DNA from: Actinomycetota bacterium
GTDB taxonomy: Bacteria > Actinomycetota > Acidimicrobiia > Acidimicrobiales > Ilumatobacteraceae
Direction of reading: 5' to 3'
DNA length: 64,000 nt
Assembly: GCA_026393575.1 (NCBI GenBank)
Contig: JAPKZX010000073.1
Coordinates: 4,793 to 68,792, forward strand
Below are positions 1 through 54,109 of this stretch, one piece after another (position 1 is the stretch's first letter; the number at the start of each line of letters is the position of its first letter). Under the pieces are notes generated by a model, which worked only from the letters and a program-made list of their open reading frames with translations, was not told where the DNA came from and ran no database searches. Position numbers and translations under genes: made by a program.

Positions 1-402
1 ATATGGAACATGATCATTCACCCAAATAATGAGTGAAGTATCGAATAAGACTTTTGCTCCACTCATGACAAACATTGAGATTGCGAACTGCACCAATGTG
101 GTGGAGGTAGCAGCGCCAACAACTGCAAGCGTGATGCCAATCATTCCAACTGTCATAGAGACAACACGGTTTCCTTTGTCAACCATGCGTCCAAGAATGG
201 GTGAACCAAGTCCGGCAAATTCTCCGATCATGAGCGCAACGCCCATTTGCGCGACGCTCACATCTAAACCGCGAGCGATTACTGCAATGAAGGGTGGGGC
301 GAAGCGATAGCACGCATTTGAAAAGAGGCGACCCCAGATGAGCCTGTCTAAATTCTTTCGAACAACTGGTGCGTATGTGTTGTCTATGTAGCGAGAAAAC
401 AT
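1..402 (-). CDS. MFS transporter, N-terminal part (gene continues beyond the left edge)
   Basis: Absent from the ORF track because there is no stop in the window. My reverse-strand translation from ATG 402-400 gives MFSRYIDNTYAPVVRKNLDRLIWGRLFSN...MIGEFAGLGSPILGRMVDKGNRVVSMTVGMIGITLAVVGA... This has hydrophobic TM segments and an MFS motif-A-like loop (G-R-M-V-D-K-G-N-R). The + ORF 29-310 is its antisense shadow. Confidence 0.65.
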   Translation of the reverse strand, partial: MFSRYIDNTYAPVVRKNLDRLIWGRLFSNACYRFAPPFIAVIARGLDVSVAQMGVALMIGEFAGLGSPILGRMVDKGNRVVSMTVGMIGITLAVVGAATSTTLVQFAISMFVMSGAKVLFDTSLIIWVNDHVPY

Positions 403-406
403 CTAG

Positions 407-1009
407 TTAGAGCTCTTCGCCGATTTCGCCGTGTTCGAATAACTCAACTACATCACCAACAGTGATGACTTCAGTTGCATCTGGCCACACAATGAACTCA
501 CAACCACCAAGGTTTGGTATGCGGCTATCACCTACGCGATGCGCACGACGCATCACACGAATAACGCCGGCATGTGCAACCACTAACACTTCGCCACCAG
601 GGAATTGTTCGGCAAGGTCAACAAGTGCAGCAGTGACGCGCGTGACGATGGAGATATCTGATTCGAAACCTGGCGGACGATTGTGTGCTTCTAGGTAACC
701 CGGCCAATCGCGTTCAATTTGGTCGTGGGTGAGACCTTGCCATTCACCAACATCGGTTTCACGAAATCGTGGATCTGCGTCTAACAAGCCAATGCCAAGA
801 CCTTCGGCGATGTATGTGGCGGTAATGCGTGAGCGACGTAAGTCGCTTGAGGCGATGGCGTCGAACATGCCGAGCTTCTGTGCAGCACGTCTCGCTTGTT
901 CGTATCCGAGGTCGGTTAGCTCAATATCTGCTTGACCCTGCCAGCGACCAAGAGCGTTCCATTCGCTTTGCCCATGGCGAAGCATCAAGATTTTGGTGGG
1001 AGGAGTCAC
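407..1009 (-). CDS. histidine phosphatase family protein (phosphoglycerate mutase-like)
   Basis: N-terminal LRHGQSEWN (RHG catalytic motif), and a later AHAGVIR histidine motif typical of the family. Confidence 0.85.
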   Translation of the reverse strand: MTPPTKILMLRHGQSEWNALGRWQGQADIELTDLGYEQARRAAQKLGMFDAIASSDLRRSRITATYIAEGLGIGLLDADPRFRETDVGEWQGLTHDQIERDWPGYLEAHNRPPGFESDISIVTRVTAALVDLAEQFPGGEVLVVAHAGVIRVMRRAHRVGDSRIPNLGGCEFIVWPDATEVITVGDVVELFEHGEIGEEL

Positions 1010-1051
1010 CCTTCGAGGATACTTCGGTACAGGTCAGACGAAGAACTGTTG

Positions 1052-1582
1052 TCAGTCGCCAGAAGTGATGCAGGCAAGGATTTCCAGAAAGAACTGGTCT
1101 GCCATTGCAATCATCTCTTCATCTGTTCGGTCTTGCACGGGGTGTGTGGTGTAAACCCTCTTCATCGAAGGTATGCCAAGAGCAACAGACTGGGCAGCGC
1201 CCGCAGAAATGAATTCCTCGGTGGCCACAAACACACCAGGTACTCCACGAAGTTCTAAATCTGAAATGTCATGCACACTGCATGACGTGCAACTGCCTCA
1301 ATCGGCTAATGCTTCAATGACCAAGTTGCATTGCGTAGCAATTTCTTGCCGCAAGTCAACTGGCGCAGGTTTTGTAAACGTTGGTTTAGAAAAACGAAGT
1401 ACTTTGGCACCGCGCTCTGTGAGCAATTCTTCAATGCGATTCAAAAAGACATTGCCGCGTGGCTTTGAAATGTCGAGCAACCCGACGGTGAGACCTTTCA
1501 CGCTGGCAGGACGAGCAAGCAATTGTCGTACGGCAGGCGTCGACTCATTGGTTGGATCGAGAATGGTGATGCCAGTTGCCAT
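1052..1582 (-). CDS. predicted selenoprotein with U-G-S-C motif (in-frame UGA at 1300-1298 read as Sec)
   Basis: ORFs 1298-1711(-) and 1052-1276(-) share one frame and are separated only by TGA. Read-through from ATG 1582 gives 176 aa: ...NLVIEALAD-U-GSCTSCSVHDISDLELRGVPGVF... A hairpin follows 11 nt after the UGA, and tRNA-Sec/selB/selA/selD lie within 2 kb. Confidence 0.7.
1268..1286 (-). promoter_or_regulatory. candidate bacterial SECIS hairpin
   Basis: The mRNA reads UGA-GGCAGUUGCAC-GUCAUGCA GUG UGCAUGAC. The arms are perfectly complementary (8 bp, or 7 bp with apical loop AGUGU containing GU). The hairpin starts 11 nt after the UGA. Confidence 0.55.
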
Positions 1583-1595
1583 GGGTATCAGTATG

Positions 1596-3041
1596 TCACG
1601 AGCCGACGATACGAGTGACGGGGTCTGAGCCGATTGCACCATTTGCCCATCCGGCAACGATGGATGAAAACAAACCTGCACCACCGCCGGCATAAGTAAG
1701 GAGCACTCCACCTGGGCGGAATTTAGGAAGTGTGGCGTCTTTCAGGTGGGGAGGAATACCTTCTGCCATATCGCGTGCGCCGCGAACAAGTTCACTGCCA
1801 TGCGTAAGAGAACGTTCGGTGATCTCGGCGATGAGTCGCTCGCGATCCCAACCAGCTTCTGCATACACGCGGCCGTGGTCTGGGCTGATTGTCAAAATTG
1901 CGTCGAAGCCAATGACCAATTTCGGGTGATGCACAGTTTGCAGCGAAGCGACAAGTGAATTAGTAAGTTCTTCCGGTGTGCGTGCAAGTTGGTCGACAAC
2001 ACATCGTGGTCCTTCACCCGCAAACACGGTGATTGCGTTTTGGCCTAGCGGCACTCCGCGTTCTGTGGCTAACGAAGTAAATGGCGAACCTTCTTCGTCT
2101 TCAGCAAAACAGAATGAGATTTTTCCTGGGTTGCCATGTGTTGCACGGTCGACTTCACCGGGGCGGCCACCACCCACATTGCGAATCGTGAGTTGCACGG
2201 CACGACCAATGGTGTTGTTCGCACGATTGCCTTGACCAAATGCGTTGATGCCAGAGTTCATTCCGATGGCGCGTGTACCTGGGCCATTACAGATGATGAC
2301 GGGGCCGACAGGCATTGTGGTGGCCAACACTCCGTGCATATTGAATTGGTCGTTACACACTGCTTCAAGAGCTGCGATGACCCACGGCATGTACTCGGGA
2401 AGGCAACCAGCCATGACTGCGTTGATTGCGATCTTTTCAACGGTGAGTTCCACAAGGTCTGGCGGCGCAATTGCAATGACATCTTGTGGGTGGCGCGTTG
2501 TTCCGGTGAGCATGCGCAACACACGCTCACGTGTTGGCGGAATGACAGGCAAACCGTCTGTCCATCCGCGCGCATACATCGCTTCAAATTCATCTTCTGC
2601 AGCAGAAAATTCAACGGTTCGTGCAATCACGGGTGAATCGGTGAACTTTGCGCGCAACTTGTCGACAATGTCTGGGTCGACACTCATGGAGCCGCAACCA
2701 GGTCGCATGGCTGGTAAGTCAGCACCTAAGTCGGCGATACCGGTGATGCGTTGCCAATCAGTTGCTTTCCAACCAAATGTTCGTTCCACTTCTTTGCCAT
2801 TGACCACTTTGATCAGTGTGGGAACAGTGTCGATGTCGTAGTGCCACGAGACAGACAAATCTTCATCATGAATTGGTGAGACAGACGATGGAAAGGTTGG
2901 ATCATCTTGCGTATAAACGGTCAGTGAGTTGGTGGCAGAAGCAATGTGAGAAAGAATAGGTTCCACCATTTGGCAGGTGGCGCATTCACGCTTCACGATG
3001 ACGACGAATCCGTTAGGAAGGTCTGGCGCAACAGAACTCAT
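1596..3041 (-). CDS. thioredoxin-fold (CxxC) domain fused to a large uncharacterised domain
   Basis: The N-terminus VVIVKRECATCQMVEPIL...VPTLIKV looks like a Trx fold with a C-A-T-C redox motif. I do not recognise the remaining ~350 aa. The stop lies 14 nt upstream of the selenoprotein start. Confidence 0.75.
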   Translation of the reverse strand: MSSVAPDLPNGFVVIVKRECATCQMVEPILSHIASATNSLTVYTQDDPTFPSSVSPIHDEDLSVSWHYDIDTVPTLIKVVNGKEVERTFGWKATDWQRITGIADLGADLPAMRPGCGSMSVDPDIVDKLRAKFTDSPVIARTVEFSAAEDEFEAMYARGWTDGLPVIPPTRERVLRMLTGTTRHPQDVIAIAPPDLVELTVEKIAINAVMAGCLPEYMPWVIAALEAVCNDQFNMHGVLATTMPVGPVIICNGPGTRAIGMNSGINAFGQGNRANNTIGRAVQLTIRNVGGGRPGEVDRATHGNPGKISFCFAEDEEGSPFTSLATERGVPLGQNAITVFAGEGPRCVVDQLARTPEELTNSLVASLQTVHHPKLVIGFDAILTISPDHGRVYAEAGWDRERLIAEITERSLTHGSELVRGARDMAEGIPPHLKDATLPKFRPGGVLLTYAGGGAGLFSSIVAGWANGAIGSDPVTRIVGS

Positions 3042-3060
3042 GGCCGAACGCTACTCTGAC

Positions 3061-3159
3061 GGCGGAGGCGTTTGAGTACCTGGTGGGCTTCGCTGTCTTC
3101 AAAACAGACGGAACGGGCGAACCCCGTTCGGCGGGTTCGATTCCCGTCCGCCTCCGCCA
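3061..3159 (+). tRNA. selC: tRNA-Sec (anticodon UCA)
   Basis: Complementary GGCGGAGG / CCTCCGCC acceptor ends. Anticodon loop C-U-UCA-A-A with UCA at 3099-3101. Long variable-arm hairpin GAACGGG-CGAA-CCCGUUC, T arm GCGGG-UUCGAUU-CCCGU, and 3' G-CCA encoded. An alternative 5' end at 3064 gives a 96-nt molecule. I could not draw the D arm cleanly by hand. Confidence 0.85.
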
Positions 3160-4860
3160 TCACCAGGCATGTCCCGGCAAGCGCACATCACCATTGCGTT
3201 TGGTGAGACCCACTTTGTCGAGACAAGTAGCAAGGGGTACAGCGTGCTTGCGGGTAATACCAAGTGCATCGCGAAGTTGAGCCATGGTGAAACCGTCTGG
3301 GTGTGTCTGCCATAGAGCCGTCAACTGAGGGCGCACGTCGTTCAATGTGTCTACATGAAAAGCAATGTTGTCGTGTTCGAACAAAACATTTCGTTGTACT
3401 AACTGGCGAATGATGTTTCGATCAAGTGTTGCGGTGTCTGGTGTAAGTAAACCAGCTAGTTGAAACTCGGCAACATACGCGTGATCAAGTAGCGGGTCTT
3501 GTTTCGCACGCGACGCCACACCGTTATGGACAACAACATCCTTCAGTGTTCTCACGATGTCTTGTTCGTATGCAGCAAGATCTGTCATCGTGATGGACAA
3601 TTCATTTTCAAGTCGATTATTCAGTTGTTGAACAGTGTCGTTGTAATCGGCAGGCAACGCGTACCACGAACCAATTGTGGGTTGCAGATTTTGTCCAGTT
3701 AGCAGTCGTGCCTGAGTAATGGAAAGAAAGCCACGTTGCTGAAGGATGTCTTCGGGCGTTGCATCTGTATGTGCAAAACGCACTGGCCCTTGTGGATCGA
3801 GATTAATGATGTGCCCACCGCCAACAGTTTGGTCTATTCCTGTGTCGCGCAGAACAACATGGTCATGAATTGCCAACGGAAGCGGTTGTGAGAAACGCAA
3901 TCGAACAGTGGCAGTTTCTCCGGGGCTAATAGAAGAAGTGTGAGCAATGCGCACAGTGACGCTCTGCATGGTGGTGCCGATGTGCAATGTGAAACTTCCG
4001 CGGTGAGTCATCGGACGCTTCAGTGTTGAGACAGCGGTAAAGTGCACATCAACAACTGATGTCATGAGATATGACTGCTGCTGTATCAGTGCATCGCCGC
4101 GGTGAAGGTCTGAGCTGTCGATGCCCACAATGTTCAGCGCACATCGCGAACGTGGCTCGCATGTTTGGACAGATGAATCAAGAGTTTGTACTTCTCTAAC
4201 GCGTACCTCTTGGCTAGTGCGCGCAACGTGCAGCACGTCACCAACACTCACAGACGCACCTTCAAGAGTTCCCGTCACCACGGTTCCCGACCCGCGAATA
4301 GTGAACACACGATCGATAAACAAACGTGTTGGTCTTGCATGGGTAGGTGGTTCTTCGTTTTCAAGAAGAGACGAGAGATGATGCAGCAGTTCTGGCAATC
4401 CTTTTTGCGTAACTACGGATGTGCTCATGAAGTTGGTCCAGTGAATGGAACTATCTATCAGTCGCTGTCGAATATCTTCTTCTAACTCGGTCAACTCAAT
4501 CTCGGTCGCCTTGTCGCTTTTGGTAATGACAATGACACCCGTACGTATGTTGAGCAGTTGTAATACATCGAGGTGTTCTTGCGTTTGTGGCATCCAGCCT
4601 TCGTGGGCATCAACAATCAGCATCGCAATGTCTACTCCGCTGACGCCAGCGATCATTGTGCGAATGAAATCAGCATGACCAGGAACATCCACAAAACTCA
4701 AAGATGTTCCGTTGGGTGTCATGCAATGTGCAAAACCAAGGTCAATCGTCATGCCTTTGCGTTTTTCTTCGGCGAGGCGGTCTGGGTCTGTCCCAGTTAA
4801 TGCAAGAACAAGAGAAGACTTGCCGTGGTCGACATGTCCGGCGGTTGCAATGACTGCCAT
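3160..4860 (-). CDS. selB: selenocysteine-specific translation elongation factor SelB
   Basis: GTPase motifs AGHVDHGKSSL, DVPGH and TKSD, followed by a long C-terminal extension of the length expected for the SelB mRNA-binding domains. Neighbours are selA and tRNA-Sec. Confidence 0.93.
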   Translation of the reverse strand: MAVIATAGHVDHGKSSLVLALTGTDPDRLAEEKRKGMTIDLGFAHCMTPNGTSLSFVDVPGHADFIRTMIAGVSGVDIAMLIVDAHEGWMPQTQEHLDVLQLLNIRTGVIVITKSDKATEIELTELEEDIRQRLIDSSIHWTNFMSTSVVTQKGLPELLHHLSSLLENEEPPTHARPTRLFIDRVFTIRGSGTVVTGTLEGASVSVGDVLHVARTSQEVRVREVQTLDSSVQTCEPRSRCALNIVGIDSSDLHRGDALIQQQSYLMTSVVDVHFTAVSTLKRPMTHRGSFTLHIGTTMQSVTVRIAHTSSISPGETATVRLRFSQPLPLAIHDHVVLRDTGIDQTVGGGHIINLDPQGPVRFAHTDATPEDILQQRGFLSITQARLLTGQNLQPTIGSWYALPADYNDTVQQLNNRLENELSITMTDLAAYEQDIVRTLKDVVVHNGVASRAKQDPLLDHAYVAEFQLAGLLTPDTATLDRNIIRQLVQRNVLFEHDNIAFHVDTLNDVRPQLTALWQTHPDGFTMAQLRDALGITRKHAVPLATCLDKVGLTKRNGDVRLPGHAW

Positions 4861-4863
4861 GAG

Positions 4864-6171
4864 TTATTTCAAAGAGTTCACAGCATCAATGATGATGGAG
4901 TCATCATCGGGGTGCACGCTTCGTAGATCTATATATGTGGTGTTCGCTACAGTGCGAGCAATTACGGGCGTTGCATGGCGCCGAAGTGCCGCGCGCTGGT
5001 CGCCAGCCAATGAGATTCCATGTGATTCGATGGTGCTTCCTGGTGCCGAACCGGCACCGATGAGTGAATCCAACGCAACACTTGTACCGACCCCAGTTGC
5101 AGCGATGAGGCGCTCTGCTCGTGTGGCTAGTTCTTGAAGAGGCGTTGTGGCCATTGCCCAGAATGGAATCTGTGTGCATACGTTGCGCGCGCTGTAGGAC
5201 AGCAACACATTTTGTAATGCAAGAAGTGTGTGTCCACCGGGCCGGAGTGTACGCATGAGTGGATGCGCAGCACATTGCGCCACCAGATCTGCACGACCGG
5301 CAATCACTCCGCATTGTGGACCGCCAAGAAGTTTGTCGCCGCTAAACGTAATGAGGTCTGCGCCGTCGGCGATTGCTTGTCGTGCAGCAGGTTCTTGTGC
5401 AATCCACGATGGAACATTTTCGAGGTATCCCTGCAACCAAGGTGCGGTGTTGTCTAAGAGGCCAGAACCAATGTCGGCCACAACAGGAACTTCGAGCGTG
5501 GCAAGTTCGGAGATACTTGTTTGTTCTGTGAAACCTTCAATAGAAAAATTTGAAGGATGCACTTTCAGCAATAACGCAATGTCGTTCTTGCGCGAATCAA
5601 TGGCACGTTCGTAATCGCGGAGGCGAGTGCGGTTGGTTGTACCAACATCAACTAGACGCGCACCAGATTGTTCCATGACATCGGGTATTCGAAAGCCACC
5701 GCCAATCTCAACGCTTTCTCCTCGTGACACTGCTACGTCGCGGCCTTCCGCAAGTGCAGCAAGTACCAACATGACAGCTGCAGCATTGTTGTTGACAACA
5801 ATTGCATCTTCAACATTGAGCAGTTGGCCGAATAATTCCGAGACTGCAGTGTGTCGCGAACCACGTTCTCCATTTGCAAGATTGAATTCAAGATTCGTTG
5901 GTCTGTGTGAGTCGGTCATCGCAAGTGGAGCGCGACCCAGATTCGTATGAAGCAACACGCCAGTACCGTTCACCACAGTGGTGAGTAACGATTGTGAGAA
6001 ATACAAAGCATTGTCGTAGGCCGCACCCTGAGCATCTTGTGGAGCATCGCGGACTGCTTCACGAGCGCAATGAACAAGTACGGCATGGGGCAATGTGAAT
6101 GACTTGGCCAATTCACGTGCAATGACGTCCACAGACGGGGGGTGCACTTGCTGGTTGCTCACGATTGTCAA
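4864..6171 (-). CDS. selA: L-seryl-tRNA(Sec) selenium transferase SelA
   Basis: Contains FSGDKLLGGPQCGVIAGR (the PLP-lysine motif of SelA). Size is 435 aa. The start is TTG at 6171-6169. Confidence 0.92.
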   Translation of the reverse strand: MTIVSNQQVHPPSVDVIARELAKSFTLPHAVLVHCAREAVRDAPQDAQGAAYDNALYFSQSLLTTVVNGTGVLLHTNLGRAPLAMTDSHRPTNLEFNLANGERGSRHTAVSELFGQLLNVEDAIVVNNNAAAVMLVLAALAEGRDVAVSRGESVEIGGGFRIPDVMEQSGARLVDVGTTNRTRLRDYERAIDSRKNDIALLLKVHPSNFSIEGFTEQTSISELATLEVPVVADIGSGLLDNTAPWLQGYLENVPSWIAQEPAARQAIADGADLITFSGDKLLGGPQCGVIAGRADLVAQCAAHPLMRTLRPGGHTLLALQNVLLSYSARNVCTQIPFWAMATTPLQELATRAERLIAATGVGTSVALDSLIGAGSAPGSTIESHGISLAGDQRAALRRHATPVIARTVANTTYIDLRSVHPDDDSIIIDAVNSLK

Positions 6172-6189
6172 CCTAGTAGTTTGCGAACT

Positions 6190-7203
6190 GTGAATAACAA
6201 CGAGAGCACTATCAAGTTGACCGAATGGACTTCGTGTGGCGGGTGCGCTGCCAAATGGGGAGCATCGCTCCTTTCAGATTTGGTACGCGATCTGCCCGAA
6301 AGTTTTGATTCGTCTCTACTTGTTGGGCTCGCGCCGTTTGATGATGCTGCGGTGTATCAACTCACACCTGAAGTTGCCTTGGTGAGCACCACCGATTTTT
6401 TCCCACCGCTTGTGGATGACCCGTCTGACTTTGGTGCGATAGCGGCGGCCAATGCATGTAGTGATGTCTTTGCAATGGGTGGTCGTGTGGTGTTGGCTGT
6501 GAACATTGCAGCGTTCCCCGAAGAGTTACCACGCGATGTCATTGCATCAATTTTCGCTGCAGCATCTGAAACAGTGCGTGATGCAGGCGGAACGATTGCT
6601 GGTGGTCACACGATTCGCAATCCGGAACCAATTTTTGGTCTAGCAGTACAAGGCGTTGTTGACCCACGACACATTTTCCGCAAGAGCGGAGCTTTGCCCG
6701 GTGACATTGCAATTTTGTCGAAGCCATTGGGAACTGGCCTTGTGACTGCAGCCGGCACAGCGGAACAAAAGAAATCTGCGATTGCTGGAATGCGTACGTT
6801 GAATCGGGTGGCTGCAGAACAGTTGAGAGAACATCAAGACAGCGTGCACGCAGTCACTGACGTCACCGGATACGGATTGGCTGGCCACGGATGGGAAATG
6901 TCCGATAGGTCGGGGGCGCGCCTCATTATCGATAGTGCATCGTTACCTCTATATGAAGGTGCGCACGAGATTGCTGCATCTGGTCATCGAACGGGTGGCG
7001 ACCCGCGCAATCGCGCGTACGTTGCAGATCGATTGACCACAACAGCAGATGATTCGTATGTGGCGTTATGCATGGATCCACAGACGTCGGGTGGACTCCT
7101 TGCAGCAGTCACACCCGAGGTTGCTAAGACATTGTGCTCGACAGATCAGTGGACACAGATAGGCCATTTCACTGGTGAGACACCAGGTATTGAAATCCGA
7201 TAG
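6190..7203 (+). CDS. selD: selenide, water dikinase SelD (Cys-type)
   Basis: N-terminal LTEWTSCGGCAAKWG (the SelD glycine-rich Cys/Sec loop) and AIR-synthase-like body. The start is uncertain: GTG 6190 or TTG 6181. The track start 6142 would overlap the selA start. Confidence 0.88.
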   Translation: MNNNESTIKLTEWTSCGGCAAKWGASLLSDLVRDLPESFDSSLLVGLAPFDDAAVYQLTPEVALVSTTDFFPPLVDDPSDFGAIAAANACSDVFAMGGRVVLAVNIAAFPEELPRDVIASIFAAASETVRDAGGTIAGGHTIRNPEPIFGLAVQGVVDPRHIFRKSGALPGDIAILSKPLGTGLVTAAGTAEQKKSAIAGMRTLNRVAAEQLREHQDSVHAVTDVTGYGLAGHGWEMSDRSGARLIIDSASLPLYEGAHEIAASGHRTGGDPRNRAYVADRLTTTADDSYVALCMDPQTSGGLLAAVTPEVAKTLCSTDQWTQIGHFTGETPGIEIR

Positions 7204-7218
7204 CACCACGCCGATACG

Positions 7219-7467
7219 ATGCCCATTGTGGCTGTTGTTCGATTTTTTGCTCAGGCGAGAGAAGCAGCAGGTGTTGGTCAGGCCGAAATTGCAGGCGCAA
7301 CTGTGGCCGATGTATTGGAAAACGCCGTTGCCACCTTTGGCGAGGGCCTTGGTCGCGTGATTTCTATGAGCAAAGTATGGGTGAATGGCGAAGAAGTGCC
7401 ACGCGACCACCTCGTGAGCGATAAAGATGAGGTAGCGGTATTGCCGCCTGTCTCGGGAGGAATCTAA
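7219..7467 (+). CDS. MoaD/ThiS-family sulfur-carrier protein, C-terminus GG-I
   Basis: VRFFAQAREAAG...DKDEVAVLPPVSGG followed by one extra Ile before the stop. This is a typical MoaD beta-grasp signature. Confidence 0.85.
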   Translation: MPIVAVVRFFAQAREAAGVGQAEIAGATVADVLENAVATFGEGLGRVISMSKVWVNGEEVPRDHLVSDKDEVAVLPPVSGGI

Positions 7468-7952
7468 TGGCAACTAAACCACCACAGTCCGTTGCAGAGA
7501 TTCGCGCCCAACGCAATGCGTTACAGGCTGAAGAAGACGCAATTTCTTTTGTTCGCCGACTAGCGCAAGGTCGTCTTGACCTGGTGCAAGACGAAGAACG
7601 TCGTCGTGCCACAGGAACCGAAACGCCAGTGGGTTCGCTTGCTGATCGACTCGCGGATGTTTTTGGTCAACAACATGGTGGTGGCAGCGCTCGACCTCCA
7701 CGCGAAACAAACATTCCTGCAGATCATCCGCTAGTGAAAGAGCTAGATGAATTGTGCGAACACTATGAATTTGAATCACTAGAGAATTTGGATTCGAAGT
7801 CGCTCTCTGAACTTGCTGGTGCTCTCAGCATGTTTGAAAAATCATGTTCTCAACTGCGCCATGATTTATTCGAGAAAATCGATGCGTTAACCGCAGCACT
7901 TGTGGCCAGCGTGCGCGCTAGCGGCGCGGGCTCCGTGGTGAAAGACCAGTAA
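7467..7952 (+). CDS. RsiG-like coiled-coil protein (putative c-di-GMP-binding anti-sigma factor homologue)
   Basis: Residues 23-38, EDAISFVRRLAQGRLD, match E-x3-S-x2-R-x3-Q-x3-D exactly. Residues 124-139, EKSCSQLRHDLFEKID, match except Q to F. The predicted helical regions are joined by a Gly/Pro linker. Confidence 0.6.
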   Translation: MATKPPQSVAEIRAQRNALQAEEDAISFVRRLAQGRLDLVQDEERRRATGTETPVGSLADRLADVFGQQHGGGSARPPRETNIPADHPLVKELDELCEHYEFESLENLDSKSLSELAGALSMFEKSCSQLRHDLFEKIDALTAALVASVRASGAGSVVKDQ

Positions 7953-8332
7953 TGGCAATTCGTCCCACTGAAAAACTGCATGACGTCGGCGAGTTCATTC
8001 GCCAACAGCGCGAAAATGCACAACAAAGCATTCGCGACCTTGCGCGGTCTGCTGGTGTCTCAAATCCGTATCTGTCTCAAATTGAACGAGGCATTCGTCG
8101 ACCATCTGCTGACATCTTGCAGCAGATTGCGCGCGCCTTAGAGATTTCCGCAGAGACTTTGTATGTGCGCGCTGGAATTTTGGATGGGACACCACCCGAG
8201 ACAAGCAGCGTTCCTGAAGCCATCAACAATGATGAGCGTCTCACGCCCGAGCAAAAGCAGAGCTTGTTGTCGGTTTATCGCTCTTTCGTGGGTAGCCAGG
8301 AAACCACTGCGCCCGTTGCCGACCCCCAGTAG
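7952..8332 (+). CDS. XRE-family helix-turn-helix transcriptional regulator
   Basis: IRQQRENAQQSIRDLARSAGVSNPYLSQIERGIRRPSADILQQIARAL is a classic Cro/C1 HTH. The start overlaps the upstream stop (TAATG). Confidence 0.85.
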   Translation: MAIRPTEKLHDVGEFIRQQRENAQQSIRDLARSAGVSNPYLSQIERGIRRPSADILQQIARALEISAETLYVRAGILDGTPPETSSVPEAINNDERLTPEQKQSLLSVYRSFVGSQETTAPVADPQ

Positions 8333-8368
8333 GGGAATCAGAACACCTCTAGATAGGTTGACTATCTC

Positions 8369-9580
8369 ATGCGTCGTGTAGCAGTTCTCTCTCTTCACAC
8401 CTCTCCATTGGCTCAGCCAGGTATTGGCGATGGTGGCGGAATGAATGTCTACGTGCGTGAACTTGTATCGGCACTTGCTCATGCCGGAGTGGATTGCACC
8501 ACTTATACACGTGCATGGCGCGATGACCTGCCAGCAGAAATCAACGTCGAGCCAAATCACAAGGTTGTTCATATTCCCGCCGGTGCAGTGGACATGCCCA
8601 AAGGTGACCTTCTTTCTGTAGTTCCTGAGTTCACCGACGGTGTTCTGCGCCACATCAACGCAAATGGCGGCACAGATGTGATTCATGCCAATTATTGGCT
8701 CAGTGGTTTGAGTGGCCACACACTGAAGCACGAACTCGACGTTCCCCTTGTCAGCACGTTTCACACGTTTGCGCGTGTGAAGGCACTGGGTGGCGACCCT
8801 GAATCTGAATTGCGCGAACAAGCAGAAACAGATGTCATTGGTTGTTCTGACGTGATTTGTGTGAGTTGCACTGAGGAAGAACGCCAGTTCATCGAGCTGT
8901 ATGGCAACCCTCCTGGCACGACTGAAATTGTTGCGCCCGGCGTAGAGCATGCATTTTTTGCACCAGGTGACAAACGTGGTGCACGCAAAGCTCTCGAGTT
9001 GGGTGACGGACCAGTGTTGTTGTTCGTCGGACGTATTCAGCCCCTGAAAGGTGCCGATGTTGCGGTGCGATCTCTTGCTGAACTGAACAGGCCTGATGCA
9101 ACACTCCTCATTGTCGGTGGCGCTAGTGGTACCGAAGGTGAAACAGAAATTGCTCACGTTCATGCGTTGATGCAAGAACTCAAAGTGGAAAACCAAGTGC
9201 GCTTTGTTGCCCCACAAGCACACCACATTTTGTCCACGTACTATCGCGCTGCAGACGTTGTTCTTGTACCAAGCCGTAGTGAGAGTTTTGGCCTTGTCGC
9301 ATTAGAGGCAGCAGCGTGTGGAACACCTGTTGTTGCAAATGCGGTAGGCGGCTTGCTCACGATTGTCGAGCACGGACGAACTGGTTTCTTAGTTCCAGAC
9401 CGTCAGCCTGAAATTTTTGCTCGCCACATTGCAAACATCTTGGATGACCCTGCACTTTCTGCGCGAATGTCGCACGATGCTGCAGAACGAGCAAAGGGCT
9501 ACACATGGAGTTTTGCTGCTGCTCGACTTCGCCGCGCATACACAGACATCACTTCTCGTGATCGCGTGGTGTGCAAGTAA
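8369..9580 (+). CDS. mshA: D-inositol-3-phosphate glycosyltransferase MshA (mycothiol biosynthesis)
   Basis: N-terminal RVAVLSLHTSPLAQPGIGDGGGMNVYVRELV and a GT4 C-terminal domain with ESFGLVALEAAACGTPVVA. Confidence 0.88.
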   Translation: MRRVAVLSLHTSPLAQPGIGDGGGMNVYVRELVSALAHAGVDCTTYTRAWRDDLPAEINVEPNHKVVHIPAGAVDMPKGDLLSVVPEFTDGVLRHINANGGTDVIHANYWLSGLSGHTLKHELDVPLVSTFHTFARVKALGGDPESELREQAETDVIGCSDVICVSCTEEERQFIELYGNPPGTTEIVAPGVEHAFFAPGDKRGARKALELGDGPVLLFVGRIQPLKGADVAVRSLAELNRPDATLLIVGGASGTEGETEIAHVHALMQELKVENQVRFVAPQAHHILSTYYRAADVVLVPSRSESFGLVALEAAACGTPVVANAVGGLLTIVEHGRTGFLVPDRQPEIFARHIANILDDPALSARMSHDAAERAKGYTWSFAAARLRRAYTDITSRDRVVCK

Positions 9581-9584
9581 ACAC

Positions 9585-10046
9585 ATGAGCGAATTGTTTA
9601 GTAACTCCGATGTAGCCGTTTTAGAACGACGAATTACTGAATGGCTCTTTGCCATGAAGGACCGCAACGAGGCAATCGCTGCAGTCGATAAAGATCAAGA
9701 GAATCATCACCGTTGGTATGTGCGTTTACGTGGTGAAGAAAAAGAGTTCACGACTGTGTGGCTCACATTGGGTCAGCGCACTTTGCGATATGAAACCTAT
9801 GTGATGCCTGCGCCCGAAGAAAACGCCGAAGCACTGTATGAGCATGTCTTGCGCCGAAATGAATCCTTAGTCGGCGCTCATTTTTCTATCGGCGTCGAAG
9901 ATGCAATCTTCTTGCGCGGCGAGTTGCCTTTGCGTCTGGTTGATGAACCAGAACTGGATCGAGTGGTAGGAACGTTGTACGCCACAGTCGAACGCGTTTT
10001 TCCCGCCATCATTCGCATTGGCTTCGCCAGCAAATTCGCTGACTAA
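9585..10046 (+). CDS. YbjN-domain protein (conserved mshA neighbour)
   Basis: Starts at ATG 9585 (MSELFSNSD...), 5 nt after the mshA stop. Size and position match the YbjN-like gene found next to mshA in mycobacteria. The track start 9417 lies inside mshA. Confidence 0.65.
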   Translation: MSELFSNSDVAVLERRITEWLFAMKDRNEAIAAVDKDQENHHRWYVRLRGEEKEFTTVWLTLGQRTLRYETYVMPAPEENAEALYEHVLRRNESLVGAHFSIGVEDAIFLRGELPLRLVDEPELDRVVGTLYATVERVFPAIIRIGFASKFAD

Positions 10047-10149
10047 ATCTGCCCCAGCACAAAACCCATCCCCACATTTACTGTGCCGGGGGCGGAAAGG
10101 TCGGGGAAGTCAGTTCCGTCCTCGGCGTCCACCCCATTAGTCTCGTTGC

Positions 10150-10944
10150 ATGACTTCACACACCTCGCGACTTGTCGTTATCGGCGGCGGCAACATGGGT
10201 TCTGCCCTGGTGGGCGGGTTAGTGCAGAGCGGGTGGGATCCTTCCACCATCACGGTTGTTGAGATTGATGCTGCCAAATGCGCACAATTGGAAAAAGACC
10301 TTGGTGTTCGCACAAGCAACGTGGTTGTTGCTGCCGAGGGCGCACTCATCGCTGTAAAACCGGGGGATGTTGTGGGTGTATGTGAGCAAGTTGCTGCAAC
10401 CGGAACACCGCGAGTGTTGTCTATTGCTGCTGGTATTTCCGTAGCCACCTTGCAACAGGCCGTGGGGAGCACAGTTGTCGCCGTGCGCGCAATGCCGAAC
10501 ACGCCAGCATTGGTAAAAGAAGGTGTCACTGCAATCTGTGGAAGCAGTGCATGTACTGAAGAAGATTACGCGTGGGCCGAATCGTTGCTATCTGCTGTTG
10601 GACTCGTGGTGCGTGTTCCTGAATTGCAGATGGATGCGGTCACCGCAGTTGCTGGTTCAGGTCCTGCATATATTTTTCTTATGGCTGAAGCGCTGTTGGC
10701 AGCTGCGATCGCAGAGGGGTTACCTCACGATGTCGCTGACGCCCTGGTACGTCAGTTGTTTCGTGGATCGGGAATCTTGTTGGCTGACTCATCCGACAGC
10801 CCTGCCACACTTCGCGAAAAGGTGACCTCGCCCAATGGAACGACGGCTGCCGGATTAGCTGTATTTGAAGAGTCGAAACTTCGTGAAATCGTGCACAACG
10901 TGGTGAAAGCGGCCGCTGCACGTAGCGCTGAGATGGGCAAATAG
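10150..10944 (+). CDS. proC: pyrroline-5-carboxylate reductase
   Basis: NAD(P) fold VVIGGGNMGSALVGGL and the C-terminal SPNGTTAAGL motif. Confidence 0.9.
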   Translation: MTSHTSRLVVIGGGNMGSALVGGLVQSGWDPSTITVVEIDAAKCAQLEKDLGVRTSNVVVAAEGALIAVKPGDVVGVCEQVAATGTPRVLSIAAGISVATLQQAVGSTVVAVRAMPNTPALVKEGVTAICGSSACTEEDYAWAESLLSAVGLVVRVPELQMDAVTAVAGSGPAYIFLMAEALLAAAIAEGLPHDVADALVRQLFRGSGILLADSSDSPATLREKVTSPNGTTAAGLAVFEESKLREIVHNVVKAAAARSAEMGK

Positions 10945-11002
10945 AGCCACCAAAATTTCCTACGAGGGTTTTCACTTTTTGTGGCCATGAGGAGTAGGTT
11001 TA

Positions 11003-11103
11003 GTGACACAGGTCACCGATGGTGGGAAACCAGCATCGGGAGTCGCGCTCAGCAATGAGCTGCGCCGAGAGGGCTGGTGCCGTCGGGGGGTTGGCACCAG
11101 CCC
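11003..11103 (+). ncRNA. candidate structured RNA element (four consecutive hairpins) in the proC - DUF62 intergenic region
   Basis: Four hairpins in series. (1) GTGAC-acag-GTCAC at 11003-11016. (2) CGAUGGUGG-GAAA-CCAGCAUCG at 11017-11038. (3) CGCGCUCA-GCAA-UGAGC(U)GCG at 11044-11064. (4) GGGCUGGUGCC-11 nt-GGCACCAGCCC at 11071-11103. The GNRA tetraloops exist only on the + strand. Confidence 0.3.
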
Positions 11104-11174
11104 TCCCGTATGTCTAGGCACATGTTGCAGTGCAAGTGAATCTCAAATCTGTTCCTACTCAATAAGGTGAAGTC

Positions 11175-12032
11175 ATGCATTCGCACGTATCTCTGCTCAC
11201 TGACTACGGACTACACGATGAATTTGTTGGCGTAATGAAATGCGTGATTACAGATCTTGCTCCGCATGCGCGCATCACAGACATCACTCATGGAATTCCC
11301 GCTTTTGATGTTCGTGCTGGTTCGCTTGCGCTTGCTCGCGCCATTCAATATGTGCCGCCTGGAATTGTGATTGCAGTTGTTGACCCAGGTGTTGGTTCAA
11401 ATCGACGCGCTATCGCAATCGAAGTTGCAGGTGGCCAGGGAGTGCTAATCGGCCCTGATAATGGTCTTCTTGCGTCGGCTGCAGCAATGGCAGGTGGCGC
11501 AGAACGAGTGTTTGAACTCTCCAACACGGATCTGCATATCGATGCGCCTGGTACAACATTTGCTGGTCGCGATATTTTTGCACCAGTTGCAGCGCACTTA
11601 TGCAACGGTGGCGCGATTGAAGATGTGGGACCAGAAATTGATTCAGCAACAGTGATGCCCGGACTTGTTCCTATTCCCACAGTTGAGAAACACGATGCAT
11701 ACGGCGAGGGATTGCGTTGTGAAGTGACGTGGGTAGACGGTTACGGAAATTGCCAACTCAATGTTGGGCCAGACGAGATTGCACAGTTCGGAACCACGGT
11801 TCGTCTTGTGATGGGTGACGATGTACGAAGCGCTCGCATTGCTTCCCATTTTGCTGAGATCGACGGCGGAGCCATTGGGGCCGTTGTTGATTCATACGGC
11901 ATGGTGGCCCTGGCGGTCGACCGTGGTTCTGCAGCGGAAACGTTGCGTCTGAGCGCAGGCGATGCAGTGCTTGTCTTTACAGGCTCTGGCGATGGTCAGA
12001 CCTCTGCCGTGAGCATCCGCTCAGCCAAGTAG
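11175..12032 (+). CDS. S-adenosyl-L-methionine hydroxide adenosyltransferase family protein (DUF62, SAM hydrolase / halogenase-like)
   Basis: LLTDYGLHDEFVGVMKCVI...VVDPGVGSNRRAIAIE...GPDNGLL...FAGRDIFAPVAAHL is the signature of the fluorinase/chlorinase-related family. Confidence 0.85.
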   Translation: MHSHVSLLTDYGLHDEFVGVMKCVITDLAPHARITDITHGIPAFDVRAGSLALARAIQYVPPGIVIAVVDPGVGSNRRAIAIEVAGGQGVLIGPDNGLLASAAAMAGGAERVFELSNTDLHIDAPGTTFAGRDIFAPVAAHLCNGGAIEDVGPEIDSATVMPGLVPIPTVEKHDAYGEGLRCEVTWVDGYGNCQLNVGPDEIAQFGTTVRLVMGDDVRSARIASHFAEIDGGAIGAVVDSYGMVALAVDRGSAAETLRLSAGDAVLVFTGSGDGQTSAVSIRSAK

Positions 12033-50129: not shown

Positions 50130-52556
50130 ATGTTGGCAGCAGCGACCGAAATGACAGAGACAGTGTTGTCGTCTGGTTGGTTCTTAGAGAACGCATGGAT
50201 TATCCCCATCATCCCTGCAATCTCGTTTGCACTCATTATCTTTTTTGGCAAGCGCATGCCGAAAAAAGGCAGCGAGTTCGGTGTCGCTTCCATGTTGGGA
50301 GCCCTTGTATTTTCCGCAGGTGCCGCATACCAGTGGATTCAGCGAGTTAATGGCGCTGCAGAAGGCGCCTACATCGCGCCAATCGTCAAGACATGGACCT
50401 GGTGGCAAAACGATGGTGTCTCGCTAGGTATTGGCCAACATGTTGATGGTCTAACAGTCACCATTCTTCTAGTCGTTGCGTTTATTTCTTCACTTGTACA
50501 GATTTATTCGCTCGAATACCTTCGCGGTGACCGTCGATACACACATTTCTTCGCGTCTCTCACGTTGTTCTCTGCAGGCATGCTCAACATGGTTGTAGCC
50601 GAGAACATGATCCAACTCATCCTTGGTTGGGAAATCATGGGTCTGTGCTCGTTCATGCTTATTGGACATTGGTGGGAAGAGGGCGCAAATAGTCGTGCTG
50701 CACTCAAAGCATTCTTTACGACACGTACTGGCGACATTGGTCTCTTGACCGGTACTGCCGTCTTGTACTTCGCTGCGAACGATTGGACTACAAAGACACT
50801 CGGCGTATCTGGCTTCTCCATTCGTGGTTTGTCATCGTGGGCGCTTTCGGGTGACCCAAGCTCTGCAGCAATCACAGTTGGCGCTGTGGCTTTATTCATT
50901 GCTGCAATCGGCAAGAGCGGCCAGTTCCCGCTCCACACCTGGTTGCCAGACGCGATGGCTGGCCCAACGCCTGTTAGTTCCTTGCTGCACTCAAGCACCA
51001 TGGTTGTTGCTGGCGTGTTCCTGGTTGCTCGCGTGTATCCAGTGTTCTTTGAAGGCCTCGACATTCTTGGGTCAGGTGCCAACTTCATTGTGATCATCGG
51101 TGGCATCACCATTGTCATTGCCGCTCTTCTCGCGTTCGTCCAAACAGACATCAAGAAGGTGTTGGCGTATTCAACTGTGAGTCAGTTGGGATACATGATG
51201 ATGGGACTCGGCGCTGGTGCCTGGTTGCCAGCCGTCTTCCATATCTTTACGCACGCGTTCTTTAAGGCTTGTCTGTTCTTGGGCGCCGGCTCAATCAGTC
51301 ACAGCTCATCGCATCACTCGTTTGAAATGAAGAAAGACATGGGTGGACTACGCAAGTTCATGCCCATCACTTTCACCACATGGATCATCTCAACATTGGC
51401 ATTATGTGGTGTCTTCCCGTTCTCTGGTTTCTTCTCTAAAGACGAAATCATCGACAACGTAGGTCATAACGGTTACAACGTGTTCATGATTGTCGGCCTG
51501 ACGGGTGCGTTCCTCACCGCTGCATATATGACACGCGCGACGTACCTCACCTTCTTTGGTTCGCCACGCGGCGCATCTGCTGGAGAGCATCATGAAGAAG
51601 AAGGTCATGGCGCACACGCAAGTCATGACGATCATGCTCATGACACTCACGGTCACGACGCACATGCAAGCCACGATGATCATGCGTCACATGGTCCTCA
51701 TGAATCTGGTTGGCTGATTACTGCACCTCTCATCATCTTGGCCACCCTTGCGTTGAGTTCTGGTTTCTTGAACGCAGCGCCATTTGGTCACAGCTGGGAG
51801 AACTTCAAGAAGTGGGTAGAACCAAGTGCTGAAGTCATCAACCCAACAGGCATTGCTTATGTCACCGGTGGTGCAGGTGAAGCAAGAATTTCTTCCGACG
51901 AACCAACTGAACCTGTTGTGGGTGAAGAGGCCCAATCCGGTGCGCCTTTGGCTGCAGCGAGTGGTGAAGAAGATCACTCGAGTGAGGAAGGTCATCACAA
52001 ATCTGATTGTGGAACCAAAACTCCAGTAGATGGCGTGTGTGTTGCACCGCAACTTAATCATGCGCCATTCAAATGGTCGAAGGCTGGCTTGTCCATGCTC
52101 ATCGTGTTTGCAGGAATGTTGTCTAGCTGGATCTTGTGTGTTCAGTTGTACGAGCGCAAGAACAAAAAACTCGTTGGTCTCACAGAGCGCAATAAGGCTC
52201 TAGGTGCCGGGTACAAGTTCTTGGTGAACAAGTACTACCTCGACGCTCTATACGAAAACGTGATCGTACGTTCCATCGCGCATCCAATCGCGCGCGGTGC
52301 GTATTGGATCAACCAAAACATTCTCGACGGCATCGTCAACGGCGCAGGTACAAGCGCCAAGACCGTTGCTGGTTGGGTGTATCGCAATGTCGATCAGAAA
52401 TTGGTCGATGGAGCAGTGAATGGTTCGGGTAACGCAGCGCAAGCAGCGGGCGGCGCCCTACAACCTGTTCAGTCCGGAAAAGTCAATATGTATGGGGCGT
52501 TGTTATTCGGCTCAGCCGCCATCGGCGCTCTCATACTCGTCATCATTAATACCTGA
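50130..52556 (+). CDS. nuoL: NADH-quinone oxidoreductase subunit L, second copy, with large His-rich and acidic insertions (808 aa)
   Basis: WEIMGLCSFMLIGHWW and GKSGQFPLHTWLPDAMAGPTPVSSLLHSSTMV. It is about 170 aa longer than the first nuoL. Confidence 0.9.
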   Translation: MLAAATEMTETVLSSGWFLENAWIIPIIPAISFALIIFFGKRMPKKGSEFGVASMLGALVFSAGAAYQWIQRVNGAAEGAYIAPIVKTWTWWQNDGVSLGIGQHVDGLTVTILLVVAFISSLVQIYSLEYLRGDRRYTHFFASLTLFSAGMLNMVVAENMIQLILGWEIMGLCSFMLIGHWWEEGANSRAALKAFFTTRTGDIGLLTGTAVLYFAANDWTTKTLGVSGFSIRGLSSWALSGDPSSAAITVGAVALFIAAIGKSGQFPLHTWLPDAMAGPTPVSSLLHSSTMVVAGVFLVARVYPVFFEGLDILGSGANFIVIIGGITIVIAALLAFVQTDIKKVLAYSTVSQLGYMMMGLGAGAWLPAVFHIFTHAFFKACLFLGAGSISHSSSHHSFEMKKDMGGLRKFMPITFTTWIISTLALCGVFPFSGFFSKDEIIDNVGHNGYNVFMIVGLTGAFLTAAYMTRATYLTFFGSPRGASAGEHHEEEGHGAHASHDDHAHDTHGHDAHASHDDHASHGPHESGWLITAPLIILATLALSSGFLNAAPFGHSWENFKKWVEPSAEVINPTGIAYVTGGAGEARISSDEPTEPVVGEEAQSGAPLAAASGEEDHSSEEGHHKSDCGTKTPVDGVCVAPQLNHAPFKWSKAGLSMLIVFAGMLSSWILCVQLYERKNKKLVGLTERNKALGAGYKFLVNKYYLDALYENVIVRSIAHPIARGAYWINQNILDGIVNGAGTSAKTVAGWVYRNVDQKLVDGAVNGSGNAAQAAGGALQPVQSGKVNMYGALLFGSAAIGALILVIINT

Positions 52557-52570
52557 GGGAGCACATAGGC

Positions 52571-54106
52571 ATGCTTAGCGAACACAACTGGGTGCTATCA
52601 GTCGGCACATTCTTGCCACTGGTGGGAGTCATCATCATGCTTTTTCTGCCGAAGGCAGACGAAGCACTAACTAAAGCAGTGGGCATCATCACAGCAGCGG
52701 CAACGCTTGCTGTCGGTGTGTTTACCTTGATTCAGTTTGACTACGGCCGCGCTGGCGAGATGCAGTTCGTGGCAAACCACGAATGGATCTCTGTCATCAA
52801 GTCGTCGTACTTCATTGGATTAGACGGAATCAGCCTTCCTCTGTATTTCCTCTCGATGGTCATCACTTTGTTGGTCATGATTTACAGCTGGGATCACGTT
52901 CCTTCACCAGGTAATCCAAAAGCATTCTTCATCTTGATGTTGGTATTGCAAACAGGTATGGCCGGAACATTTATTTCCCGTGACCTCATCTTGTTCTTCG
53001 TGTTCTTCGAACTTGTTCTGTTGCCGATGTATTTCATGATTGGTGTTTGGGGTGGCGAAAATCGCCAGTACGCATCACTCAAGTTCTTCTTGTACACCAT
53101 GTTTGGTTCGGCGCTTATGTTGGTGGCCTTCCTTGCGTTGTTCTTCAAGACCGGTGCCGAAAGTTTCTCTATTCCATTCCTCATTGAAAATGGTTTGAAC
53201 ATTTCTCGTACGACCCAGATCTGGATCTTCGGTGGCATGTTTGTTGGCTTCGCGGTCAAGGTGCCAATGTTCCCGTTCCACACTTGGTTGCCTGATGCGC
53301 ACACCCAAGCGCCAACTCAAGGTTCAGTCATCCTGGCTGCCATCTTGTTGAAGTTGGGTACCTACGGTTTTGTACGAATCGCAATTCCGATTCTTCCTGA
53401 AGCAGCAAAAGCATGGGCGCCGTACATCGGTGCTCTTGCAGTGATTGGCATTATCTATGGCGCGCTTGGCTGTCTCGCCCAAACAGATATGAAGCGATTG
53501 ATTGCGTTCTCATCGGTTGCTCACATGGGTTACGTCATGTTGGGTATTTCAACTTTGACCTCGTTCGGTATGAACGCAGCAATGTTTGGAATGGTTGCTC
53601 ACGGTTTGATTACCGGCATGTTGTTCTTTGTTGCAGGTTCTGTGAAAGAGCGTTATCACACACTTGAAATCAAGCGTCTCTCTGGCATGTTGTTACAAAT
53701 ACCAAAACTTGGTTGGATCATGGGCTTCTGTGCGATGGCTTCGCTTGGTCTTCCAGGTCTTGCAGGTTTCTGGGGTGAATTCCCCGCGATTCTCTCTGCA
53801 TATCAACCAGCCGACGGGTTGCCAGTTGAGGTTTTCCGCGCATACATGGTGATTGCTGCAATCGGAACTGTGTTTGCTGCTGGTTATCTGTTGTGGCTGT
53901 TCCAGCGGACTGCATTTGGTGAGCCAACTGCAGAGTTCTCACCAGGTCATGGTCACGACGAAGACATCCATGATGTCAACAAGTTTGAGTGGCTGGCATG
54001 GTCACCTTTGCTTATCGCCATCGTGGTCTTTGGTGTGTACCCACAACTGATGTTCAAAGTTCTCGACCCAGCTGTGGGCGTCACGTTGAAGGCTTTTGGA
54101 GGCTGA
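52571..54106 (+). CDS. nuoM: NADH-quinone oxidoreductase subunit M, second copy
   Basis: KVPMFPFHTWLPDAHTQAPTQGSVILAAILLKLG. Confidence 0.92.
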   Translation: MLSEHNWVLSVGTFLPLVGVIIMLFLPKADEALTKAVGIITAAATLAVGVFTLIQFDYGRAGEMQFVANHEWISVIKSSYFIGLDGISLPLYFLSMVITLLVMIYSWDHVPSPGNPKAFFILMLVLQTGMAGTFISRDLILFFVFFELVLLPMYFMIGVWGGENRQYASLKFFLYTMFGSALMLVAFLALFFKTGAESFSIPFLIENGLNISRTTQIWIFGGMFVGFAVKVPMFPFHTWLPDAHTQAPTQGSVILAAILLKLGTYGFVRIAIPILPEAAKAWAPYIGALAVIGIIYGALGCLAQTDMKRLIAFSSVAHMGYVMLGISTLTSFGMNAAMFGMVAHGLITGMLFFVAGSVKERYHTLEIKRLSGMLLQIPKLGWIMGFCAMASLGLPGLAGFWGEFPAILSAYQPADGLPVEVFRAYMVIAAIGTVFAAGYLLWLFQRTAFGEPTAEFSPGHGHDEDIHDVNKFEWLAWSPLLIAIVVFGVYPQLMFKVLDPAVGVTLKAFGG

Positions 54107-54109
54107 CCC

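Follow-up and report, generated by a model that had tools for sequence, protein, structure and literature searches.

The 'UGSC-containing protein' first entered the literature as a selenoprotein of Hyphomonas neptunium that was also seen in metagenomes (PMC1976440). A survey of the Global Ocean Sampling data later placed UGSC among the most abundant selenoprotein families (255 selenocysteine (Sec) forms vs 21 Cys forms) and showed it to be enriched in non-marine samples (PMC2398784), and a 2026 review still lists it as an uncharacterised selenoprotein (PMC13188914). Here, we describe a member of this family encoded on the minus strand (1582-1052) of a 64,000-nucleotide stretch of Ilumatobacteraceae DNA (contig JAPKZX010000073.1 of assembly GCA_026393575.1, positions 4,793 to 68,792), hereafter the window, to which all coordinates below refer. 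We are highly confident, from several lines of comparative sequence evidence, that this stretch is a single gene for a 176-amino-acid (aa) UGSC family selenoprotein, in which an in-frame UGA is read as Sec by way of a hairpin just downstream. UGSC proteins are among the most abundant selenoproteins of aquatic metagenomes, yet their function is unknown, and the context of this gene supplies three handles on that function: the unmodelled core domain with which UGSC is paired and sometimes fused, a remote link to selenoprotein B, and a predicted fold that is not that of thioredoxin.

The family reference, the 'UGSC-containing protein' of Zhang & Gladyshev, is ABI76733.1 from Hyphomonas neptunium. 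With U written as C, the window protein scores 151.9 bits against NCBIfam NF041046, 'UGSC family (seleno)protein' (curated cut-off 125), and 147.8 bits against Pfam PF24696, 'UGSC family' (cut-off 25). Along with scores above both cut-offs, it shares the length class of the family and its U-G-S-C motif, which reads EALAD-U-GSC in the window protein and has Sec or Cys at the first position in relatives; we found no difference that touches membership. The abundance of UGSC in non-marine aquatic samples also fits the freshwater, Ilumatobacteraceae-like sequence of the window. An earlier note on this DNA, made by a reader with the sequence alone, had given 'UGSC family (seleno)protein' as the RefSeq product name for such proteins; both the name and the membership proved right, and an Ilumatobacteraceae homologue (P0263) carries that name at NCBI. 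This selenoprotein family is curated and long known, the gene is one of its ordinary members, and current NCBI rules would name it automatically. Because the UGSC family has been described since 2007-2008, the novelty of the call itself is low.

The gene and its recoding elements, all on the minus strand, are laid out as follows.

1052..1582, minus strand: UGSC family selenoprotein gene, 176 aa, from ATG 1582 to stop TGA 1054-1052, with Sec predicted at residue 95 (translation, family models and tblastn)
1298..1300, minus strand: in-frame UGA, very probably read as selenocysteine (TGA in 154/155 distinct homologous loci, TGT in 1/155; Cys in homologues P0003 and P0004)
1287..1297, minus strand: spacer of 11 nucleotides (nt) from UGA to hairpin (GGC AGU UGC AC), invariant in length across loci
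1268..1286, minus strand: SECIS (Sec insertion sequence)-type hairpin GUCAUGCA-GUG-UGCAUGAC, 8-bp stem with GUG apical loop (bacterial SECIS criteria and conservation)

Open reading frames (ORFs) 1298-1711(-) and 1052-1276(-) lie in one frame, and the ORF listing and translation show TGA 1300-1298 to be their sole separator. Reading through from ATG 1582 yields a product of 176 aa with the in-frame stop at residue 95, in the centre of the motif EALAD-U-GSC-TSC-SVHD. The supposed start of ORF 1052-1276(-) is a GTG that codes for the conserved Val of SVHD. The earlier note had described one frame split by a TGA, a readthrough product of this length and motif, and a second ORF with no plausible start of its own, and translation agrees with it on all three.

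Public records treat this TGA as a genuine stop, which would make the locus a pseudogene disrupted by a nonsense mutation, or else a pair of small genes. For the exact window sequence, GenBank, JGI and ENA call a 94-aa and a 74-aa 'hypothetical protein'; in GenBank these are MCX6518312.1 (94 aa, locus tag NTV13_06555) and MCX6518311.1 (74 aa, locus tag NTV13_06550), from an Actinomycetota metagenome-assembled genome (MAG). The N-terminal fragment recurs on 616 contigs, and the protein databases (JGI and ENA included) hold hundreds of N-terminal fragments of ~94-101 aa that end ...EALAD, plus C-terminal ones of ~74 aa. A protein search with the C-terminal half returned nearly all fragments of 72-78 aa and no new full-length Cys forms. 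Such records are what the earlier note had anticipated when it said that gene callers would miss the gene or yield two fragments.

A genome scan retrieved 341 relatives, of which the best 80, all from Acidimicrobiia and mostly Ilumatobacteraceae MAGs, were analysed; the closest of these is 98% identical, and tblastn matches cover residues 1-176 in the 80 genomes. A second scan, with a 60%-identical Cys form as query, retrieved 80 further loci from various metagenome projects. Pooled, the two sets comprise 155 distinct sequences spanning 60-98% protein identity. The Sec column is TGA in 80/80 species-level genome loci, with the protein conserved on both sides, and in 80/80 metagenome loci; in the pooled set it is TGA in 154/155 and TGT in 1/155 (L081, the contig of Cys form P0004). 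Because TGA is conserved in 154 of 155 loci, a random nonsense mutation is unable to explain the locus. The alignment across the UGA that the earlier note had asked for does exist, with Cys at this column in the full-length homologues P0003 and P0004 and TGA in nearly every locus; a metagenome search by degenerate pattern aimed at further Cys-form loci found none. Downstream of the hairpin, close relatives have 20, 12 and 32 variable columns by codon position, as is typical of a translated frame, and the frame past the UGA is under purifying selection. Moreover, the 74-aa 'gene' would have to start inside the motif, at the codon for its conserved Val; the UGSC models are covered only by both halves together; and the Cys forms are contiguous. 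We consider a genuine stop extremely improbable. The readthrough call fixes a mis-annotation of the gene in public records, and the case shows that a sequence-only reader is able to recover a recoded gene.

Under the bacterial SECIS (bSECIS) model, an apical loop of 3-9 nt is carried on an upper stem of 4-16 bp, G stands within the first two loop positions and is usually followed by G or U, the loop lies 16-37 nt from the UGA, and the folding energy is -7.5 kcal/mol or lower (PMC13188914). The hairpin GUCAUGCA-GUG-UGCAUGAC agrees with the model on all four counts: it has a 3-nt loop on an 8-bp stem, the loop reads GUG, the hairpin begins 11 nt after the UGA so that its loop starts at 19 nt (11-nt spacer plus 8-nt arm), and it folds with -9.5 kcal/mol (19 nt alone) or -11.7 kcal/mol (39 nt), as the dominant feature of the local fold. 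The earlier note had placed it at this distance, at 1286-1268, with GU in the loop, and had proposed a SECIS check; the hairpin folds as described, the published bSECIS criteria agree with it, and constraint at synonymous sites (below) shows selection at the RNA level. In the window, a perfect hairpin of at least 8 bp with SECIS geometry follows 5 of 2546 TGA triplets (0.2%, vs 0.09% in shuffled sequence), and 2 of those 5 cases are the 1286-1268 hairpin itself. Like bacterial SECIS of the E. coli fdhF type, the element is an intragenic stem-loop that follows closely 3' of the UGA, with an upper stem of 8 bp, a small G-U-opening loop that begins 19 nt past the UGA, and an energy below -7.5 kcal/mol. 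It differs in that its 3-nt loop is the minimum of the model, it has neither a bulged U nor an extended lower stem, and it resembles none of the Rfam SECIS models in sequence; its role as a SECIS is a prediction from comparative evidence.

The nucleotides of the hairpin are conserved more tightly than the peptide requires. Conserved degenerate codons average 0.15 bits of synonymous entropy in the hairpin (+4 to +10) vs 1.36 bits elsewhere (55 codons), and 5/6 such codons are frozen in the hairpin vs 0/55 elsewhere. The Ser codon that spans stem and loop (+7) is AGT in 155/155, whereas the Ser codon of the spacer (+2) takes five codons; the Gly, Ser and Cys codons of the spacer vary freely at synonymous sites in the 155 loci, with GGC nearly fixed in the 79 closest. 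Pairing is kept in 97.8% of cells of the alignment, and the loop-opening GU in 155/155. Both partners of stem pair 4 are synonymous third positions, one in a Ser/Thr codon (NNR) and one in a His codon (CAY); the pair is GC in 123, AU in 23, GU in 8 and mismatched in 1 sequence, so that it switches between A-U and G-C by way of G-U and never A-C. On a neighbour-joining tree from the flanks, which is rough given the short sequences, this pair passed through at least ~14 state changes, with A-U in 11 separate groups. Pair 1 is GC in 153 and AU in 2, the AU cases (L125 and L143, with ACA...GAT) being another compensatory change. The constraint that a SECIS places on synonymous sites is seen in this gene with unusual clarity.

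The gene could still encode a selenoprotein if the 1286-1268 hairpin were not the SelB-binding element and a constraint on the peptide motif, on mRNA stability or on pausing had shaped it instead, and four observations weigh against our interpretation, all but the third of them also in favour of this alternative. The folding energy is not unusual against shuffled sequences (z = -0.54 for 66 nt, -0.93 for 39 nt); the Rfam SECIS covariance models have no match in window positions 1-12000 at E up to 1, the only element found being the tRNA-Sec; 6/8 stem pairs never vary in the closest 75 sequences and 5/8 never vary across the 155; and in L081, the sole Cys-form contig with DNA, the hairpin is identical base for base. 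The missing Rfam match was not weighed against function because bacterial SECIS elements are too diverse for good Rfam coverage, and stem variation is limited because the peptide motif TSCSVHD is itself near-invariant. As 80/80 relatives retrieved with the Cys form carry TGA, L081 is probably a recent Sec-to-Cys change with a remnant SECIS, which is a documented pattern (PMC1794560), or else a sequencing error. A peptide constraint, in turn, can neither freeze synonymous third positions nor make two of them covary, whereas the position, loop size, loop-opening G-U and energy of the hairpin all fit the bSECIS consensus and no other conserved structure was found within 60 nt. A selenoprotein with some other SelB-binding element thus appears quite improbable, and we keep to a hairpin that acts as the SECIS. 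In L081 (1214-1291), the Ser codon of the spacer has moved from AGY to TCT.

Upstream of the gene, the window also encodes the machinery for Sec insertion.

3064-3155, plus strand (opposite to the UGSC gene): tRNA-Sec (selC), anticodon UCA (Rfam RF01852, 63.3 bits, E = 3e-11)
3160-4860, minus strand: selB, Sec-specific elongation factor (TIGR00475, 318 bits; PF09107 SelB-wing_3, the C-terminal, SECIS-binding winged-helix domain)
4864-6171, minus strand: selA, selenocysteine synthase (TIGR00474, 398 bits)
6142-7203, plus strand: selD, selenophosphate synthetase, Cys form (TIGR00476, 328.6 bits)

Matches to selB, selA and selD are each above the NCBIfam equivalog cut-off, and together with the Rfam hit these family matches show that SelD, SelA, tRNA-Sec and SelB are encoded at the locus. 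The earlier note had put all four within 2 kb of the gene; all four are present, but at an actual distance of 1.5-5.6 kb.

This set bears on another way of reading through the UGA, one that inserts no Sec: the codon may have been reassigned (to Trp or Gly, as in genetic codes 4 and 25), or near-cognate suppression may insert Trp or Cys. Full-length database homologues with other residues at the Sec column would agree with this, namely P0002 and P0005 with W and P0001 with R. The W entries, however, are most simply translations under another genetic code, and W in P0002 and P0005 probably comes from a code that reads TGA as Trp. In the window itself, TGA is the commonest ordinary stop, closing 21/41 long open frames, the UGSC gene and its neighbour included, and UGA is therefore not reassigned in this organism. 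In addition, a complete selC-selB-selA-selD set adjoins the gene, and the natural substitute at the column is Cys, the sulphur analogue of Sec. We accordingly give readthrough without Sec very little credence.

Insertion of Sec is expected to follow the established bacterial pathway. SelD would make selenophosphate, with which SelA would convert Ser-tRNA-Sec to Sec-tRNA-Sec. SelB-GTP carrying Sec-tRNA-Sec would then bind hairpin 1286-1268 through its C-terminal winged-helix domain, and the bound hairpin would allow Sec to be delivered while UGA 1300-1298 is in the A site, so that translation would continue to the stop at 1054-1052. As to the placement of the machinery, the selD-selA-selB-tRNA-Sec cluster adjoins the UGSC gene and its upstream partner (below) only in the clade closest to the window (L001-L031), and in more distant Ilumatobacteraceae (L032-L080) the pair stands alone, with no neighbouring sel cluster. 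Since the cluster adjoins the pair only in the closest clade, the Sec machinery may there travel with its client gene.

The gene next to UGSC is its most constant companion.

1596-3041, minus strand: partner gene, 481 aa, an N-terminal thioredoxin domain followed by a core of ~340 aa, ending 13 nt short of the UGSC start

The tRNA-Sec gene sits between selB and this partner gene. The thioredoxin domain at the partner N-terminus has an invariant C20-x-x-C23, and PDB searches with the partner matched thioredoxin only, at that N-terminus. The core (approximately residues 145-480) has no Pfam, NCBIfam or PDB match in sequence and profile searches. A homologue of the partner lies directly upstream of UGSC in 78/78 genome loci with upstream DNA, including the clade with no sel genes nearby, and in 64/69 metagenome loci. 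In two Cys-form contigs an upstream gene shares 4 nt with the start of UGSC; the one in L081 has 59% identity to the partner. The core family is large: an exhaustive search gave 5,703 clusters at 50% identity, with many stand-alone proteins of 340-370 aa. UGSC is fused to the core in 8 of 43 diverse core representatives (e.g. P0482 and P0506), and other fusions among the 43 are with Redoxin/AhpC-TSA/ResA-like domains (6), thioredoxin (6) and a ferredoxin-thioredoxin-reductase beta-like (FTR-B) domain (1). A fusion of UGSC with a domain called 'Unknown_1' is also shown in the Global Ocean Sampling study. A single cysteine of the core, C213, is nearly invariant. The core has the appearance of an undescribed family of redox enzymes, and so large an unmodelled family could unlock the function of UGSC.

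For UGSC itself a thioredoxin-like fold has been proposed (PMC2398784), and the protein might accordingly be a free-standing thioredoxin-fold oxidoreductase with a general antioxidant duty and no specific link to the upstream gene. An AlphaFold (AF2) model of the 60%-identical Cys homologue P0004 (predicted local distance difference test score (pLDDT) 82.8, predicted template modelling score (pTM) 0.81) is an alternating beta-alpha domain in which the Sec/Cys residue lies between strand 87-93 and helix 97-111. A Foldseek search of this model against PDB found flavodoxin-like proteins (DpaB, flavodoxins and WrbA), and thioredoxin was not among the PDB matches. PDB sequence and profile searches with UGSC gave no credible match. 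The thioredoxin-like fold of the literature is not supported, because the model matches flavodoxin-like proteins and no thioredoxin; UGSC is predicted to be flavodoxin-like rather than thioredoxin-like. In the window protein, the U95-G-S-C98-T-S-C101 centre would then lie in a flavodoxin-like alpha/beta domain, flanked by a beta strand on one side and by the N-terminal end of a helix on the other. The near-universal synteny and the recurrent fusion with the same core likewise argue for a dedicated partner, and we judge a free-standing UGSC of thioredoxin fold to be unlikely.

The second handle comes from selenoprotein B of the glycine, sarcosine, betaine and D-proline reductases (GrdB, GrdF, GrdH and PrdB; TIGR01917, TIGR01918 and NF040794). 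Among 36 diverse UGSC proteins, 33 have weak matches to GrdF of sarcosine reductase (best E = 1.4e-5) and 30 to GrdB of glycine reductase (best E = 7.4e-6), and fewer match TIGR01918, GrdH and PrdB. The aligned stretch includes the UGSC Sec, with U95 falling near profile position 350, which we take to be close to the Sec of GrdB. The two families share a UxxC redox motif and, at the level of the operon, a thioredoxin module. Against the selenoprotein B models, however, the window protein scores 12-15 bits and the UGSC family 12-30 bits, with cut-offs of 600-800, and UGSC is not a member of the selenoprotein B family because these scores are so far below the cut-offs; the homology is remote and limited to one region. 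UGSC is also shorter (176 aa against ~240-435 aa), and, in contrast to the selenoprotein B systems, the locus has no homologues of GrdA, GrdE or PrdA, its partner being an unrelated, uncharacterised domain. The weak hits indicate that UGSC is a remote relative of the Sec region only of selenoprotein B.

Because of the synteny and the fusions, we think it probable, if with some reserve, that UGSC and the upstream 481-aa protein form a functional partnership. UGSC would be a dedicated selenol/thiol redox subunit of the upstream-encoded protein, whose core of ~340 aa would carry the substrate chemistry and whose fused thioredoxin domain (CxxC) would re-reduce an Se-S bond between U95 and C98, in parallel to selenoprotein B and thioredoxin in glycine and D-proline reductases. 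By this analogy, the chemistry could be an Se-S cycle at U95 and C98 in which the fused thioredoxin domain serves as the reductant, a proposal that we regard as less likely than not. Only tentatively would we go as far as a general picture in which UGSC and the core are the two components of a selenium-dependent redox enzyme that is widespread among aerobic bacteria of water and soil, a reductase with an Se-S cycle whose UGSC component would share its ancestry with the Sec-bearing region of selenoprotein B. Three points weigh against these functional and structural readings. The functional model draws on synteny, on fusions and on matches with E-values between 1e-5 and 1e-2; the flavodoxin-like matches of the P0004 model have template modelling (TM) scores of 0.4-0.5 and are generic; and the predicted structure of the 481-aa partner reaches a pLDDT of 50.8, from a shallow alignment, with a core that has no known relative. 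If the picture is true, the core swaps interchangeable electron-donor modules, namely UGSC, thioredoxin, Redoxin/ResA-like and FTR-B domains.

Several minor features of the window were also noted. The divergent selA and selD ORFs, as called, have 30 nt in common at their 5' ends; because the match to the selD model begins only at residue 25, selD probably starts downstream of the position called. ARAGORN called the selC gene as a tRNA-Phe (3064-3159(+), anticodon aaa, 96 nt), which was set aside in favour of tRNA-Sec (anticodon UCA), the Rfam assignment. No in-frame TGA junction in the window is longer than 52550-55618(+), with TGA 54104; it is not a selenoprotein and, judged by sequence alone, looks like the nuoM stop with nuoN next in frame. 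The other cases of TGA with a perfect 8-bp hairpin of SECIS-like geometry, at 13620(+) and 57677/57683(-), were likewise rejected as selenoproteins, as neither is in frame with the long ORFs at its site. The hairpin at 13620(+) may be a terminator, since it lies beside the point where the 12140-13627 gene stops.

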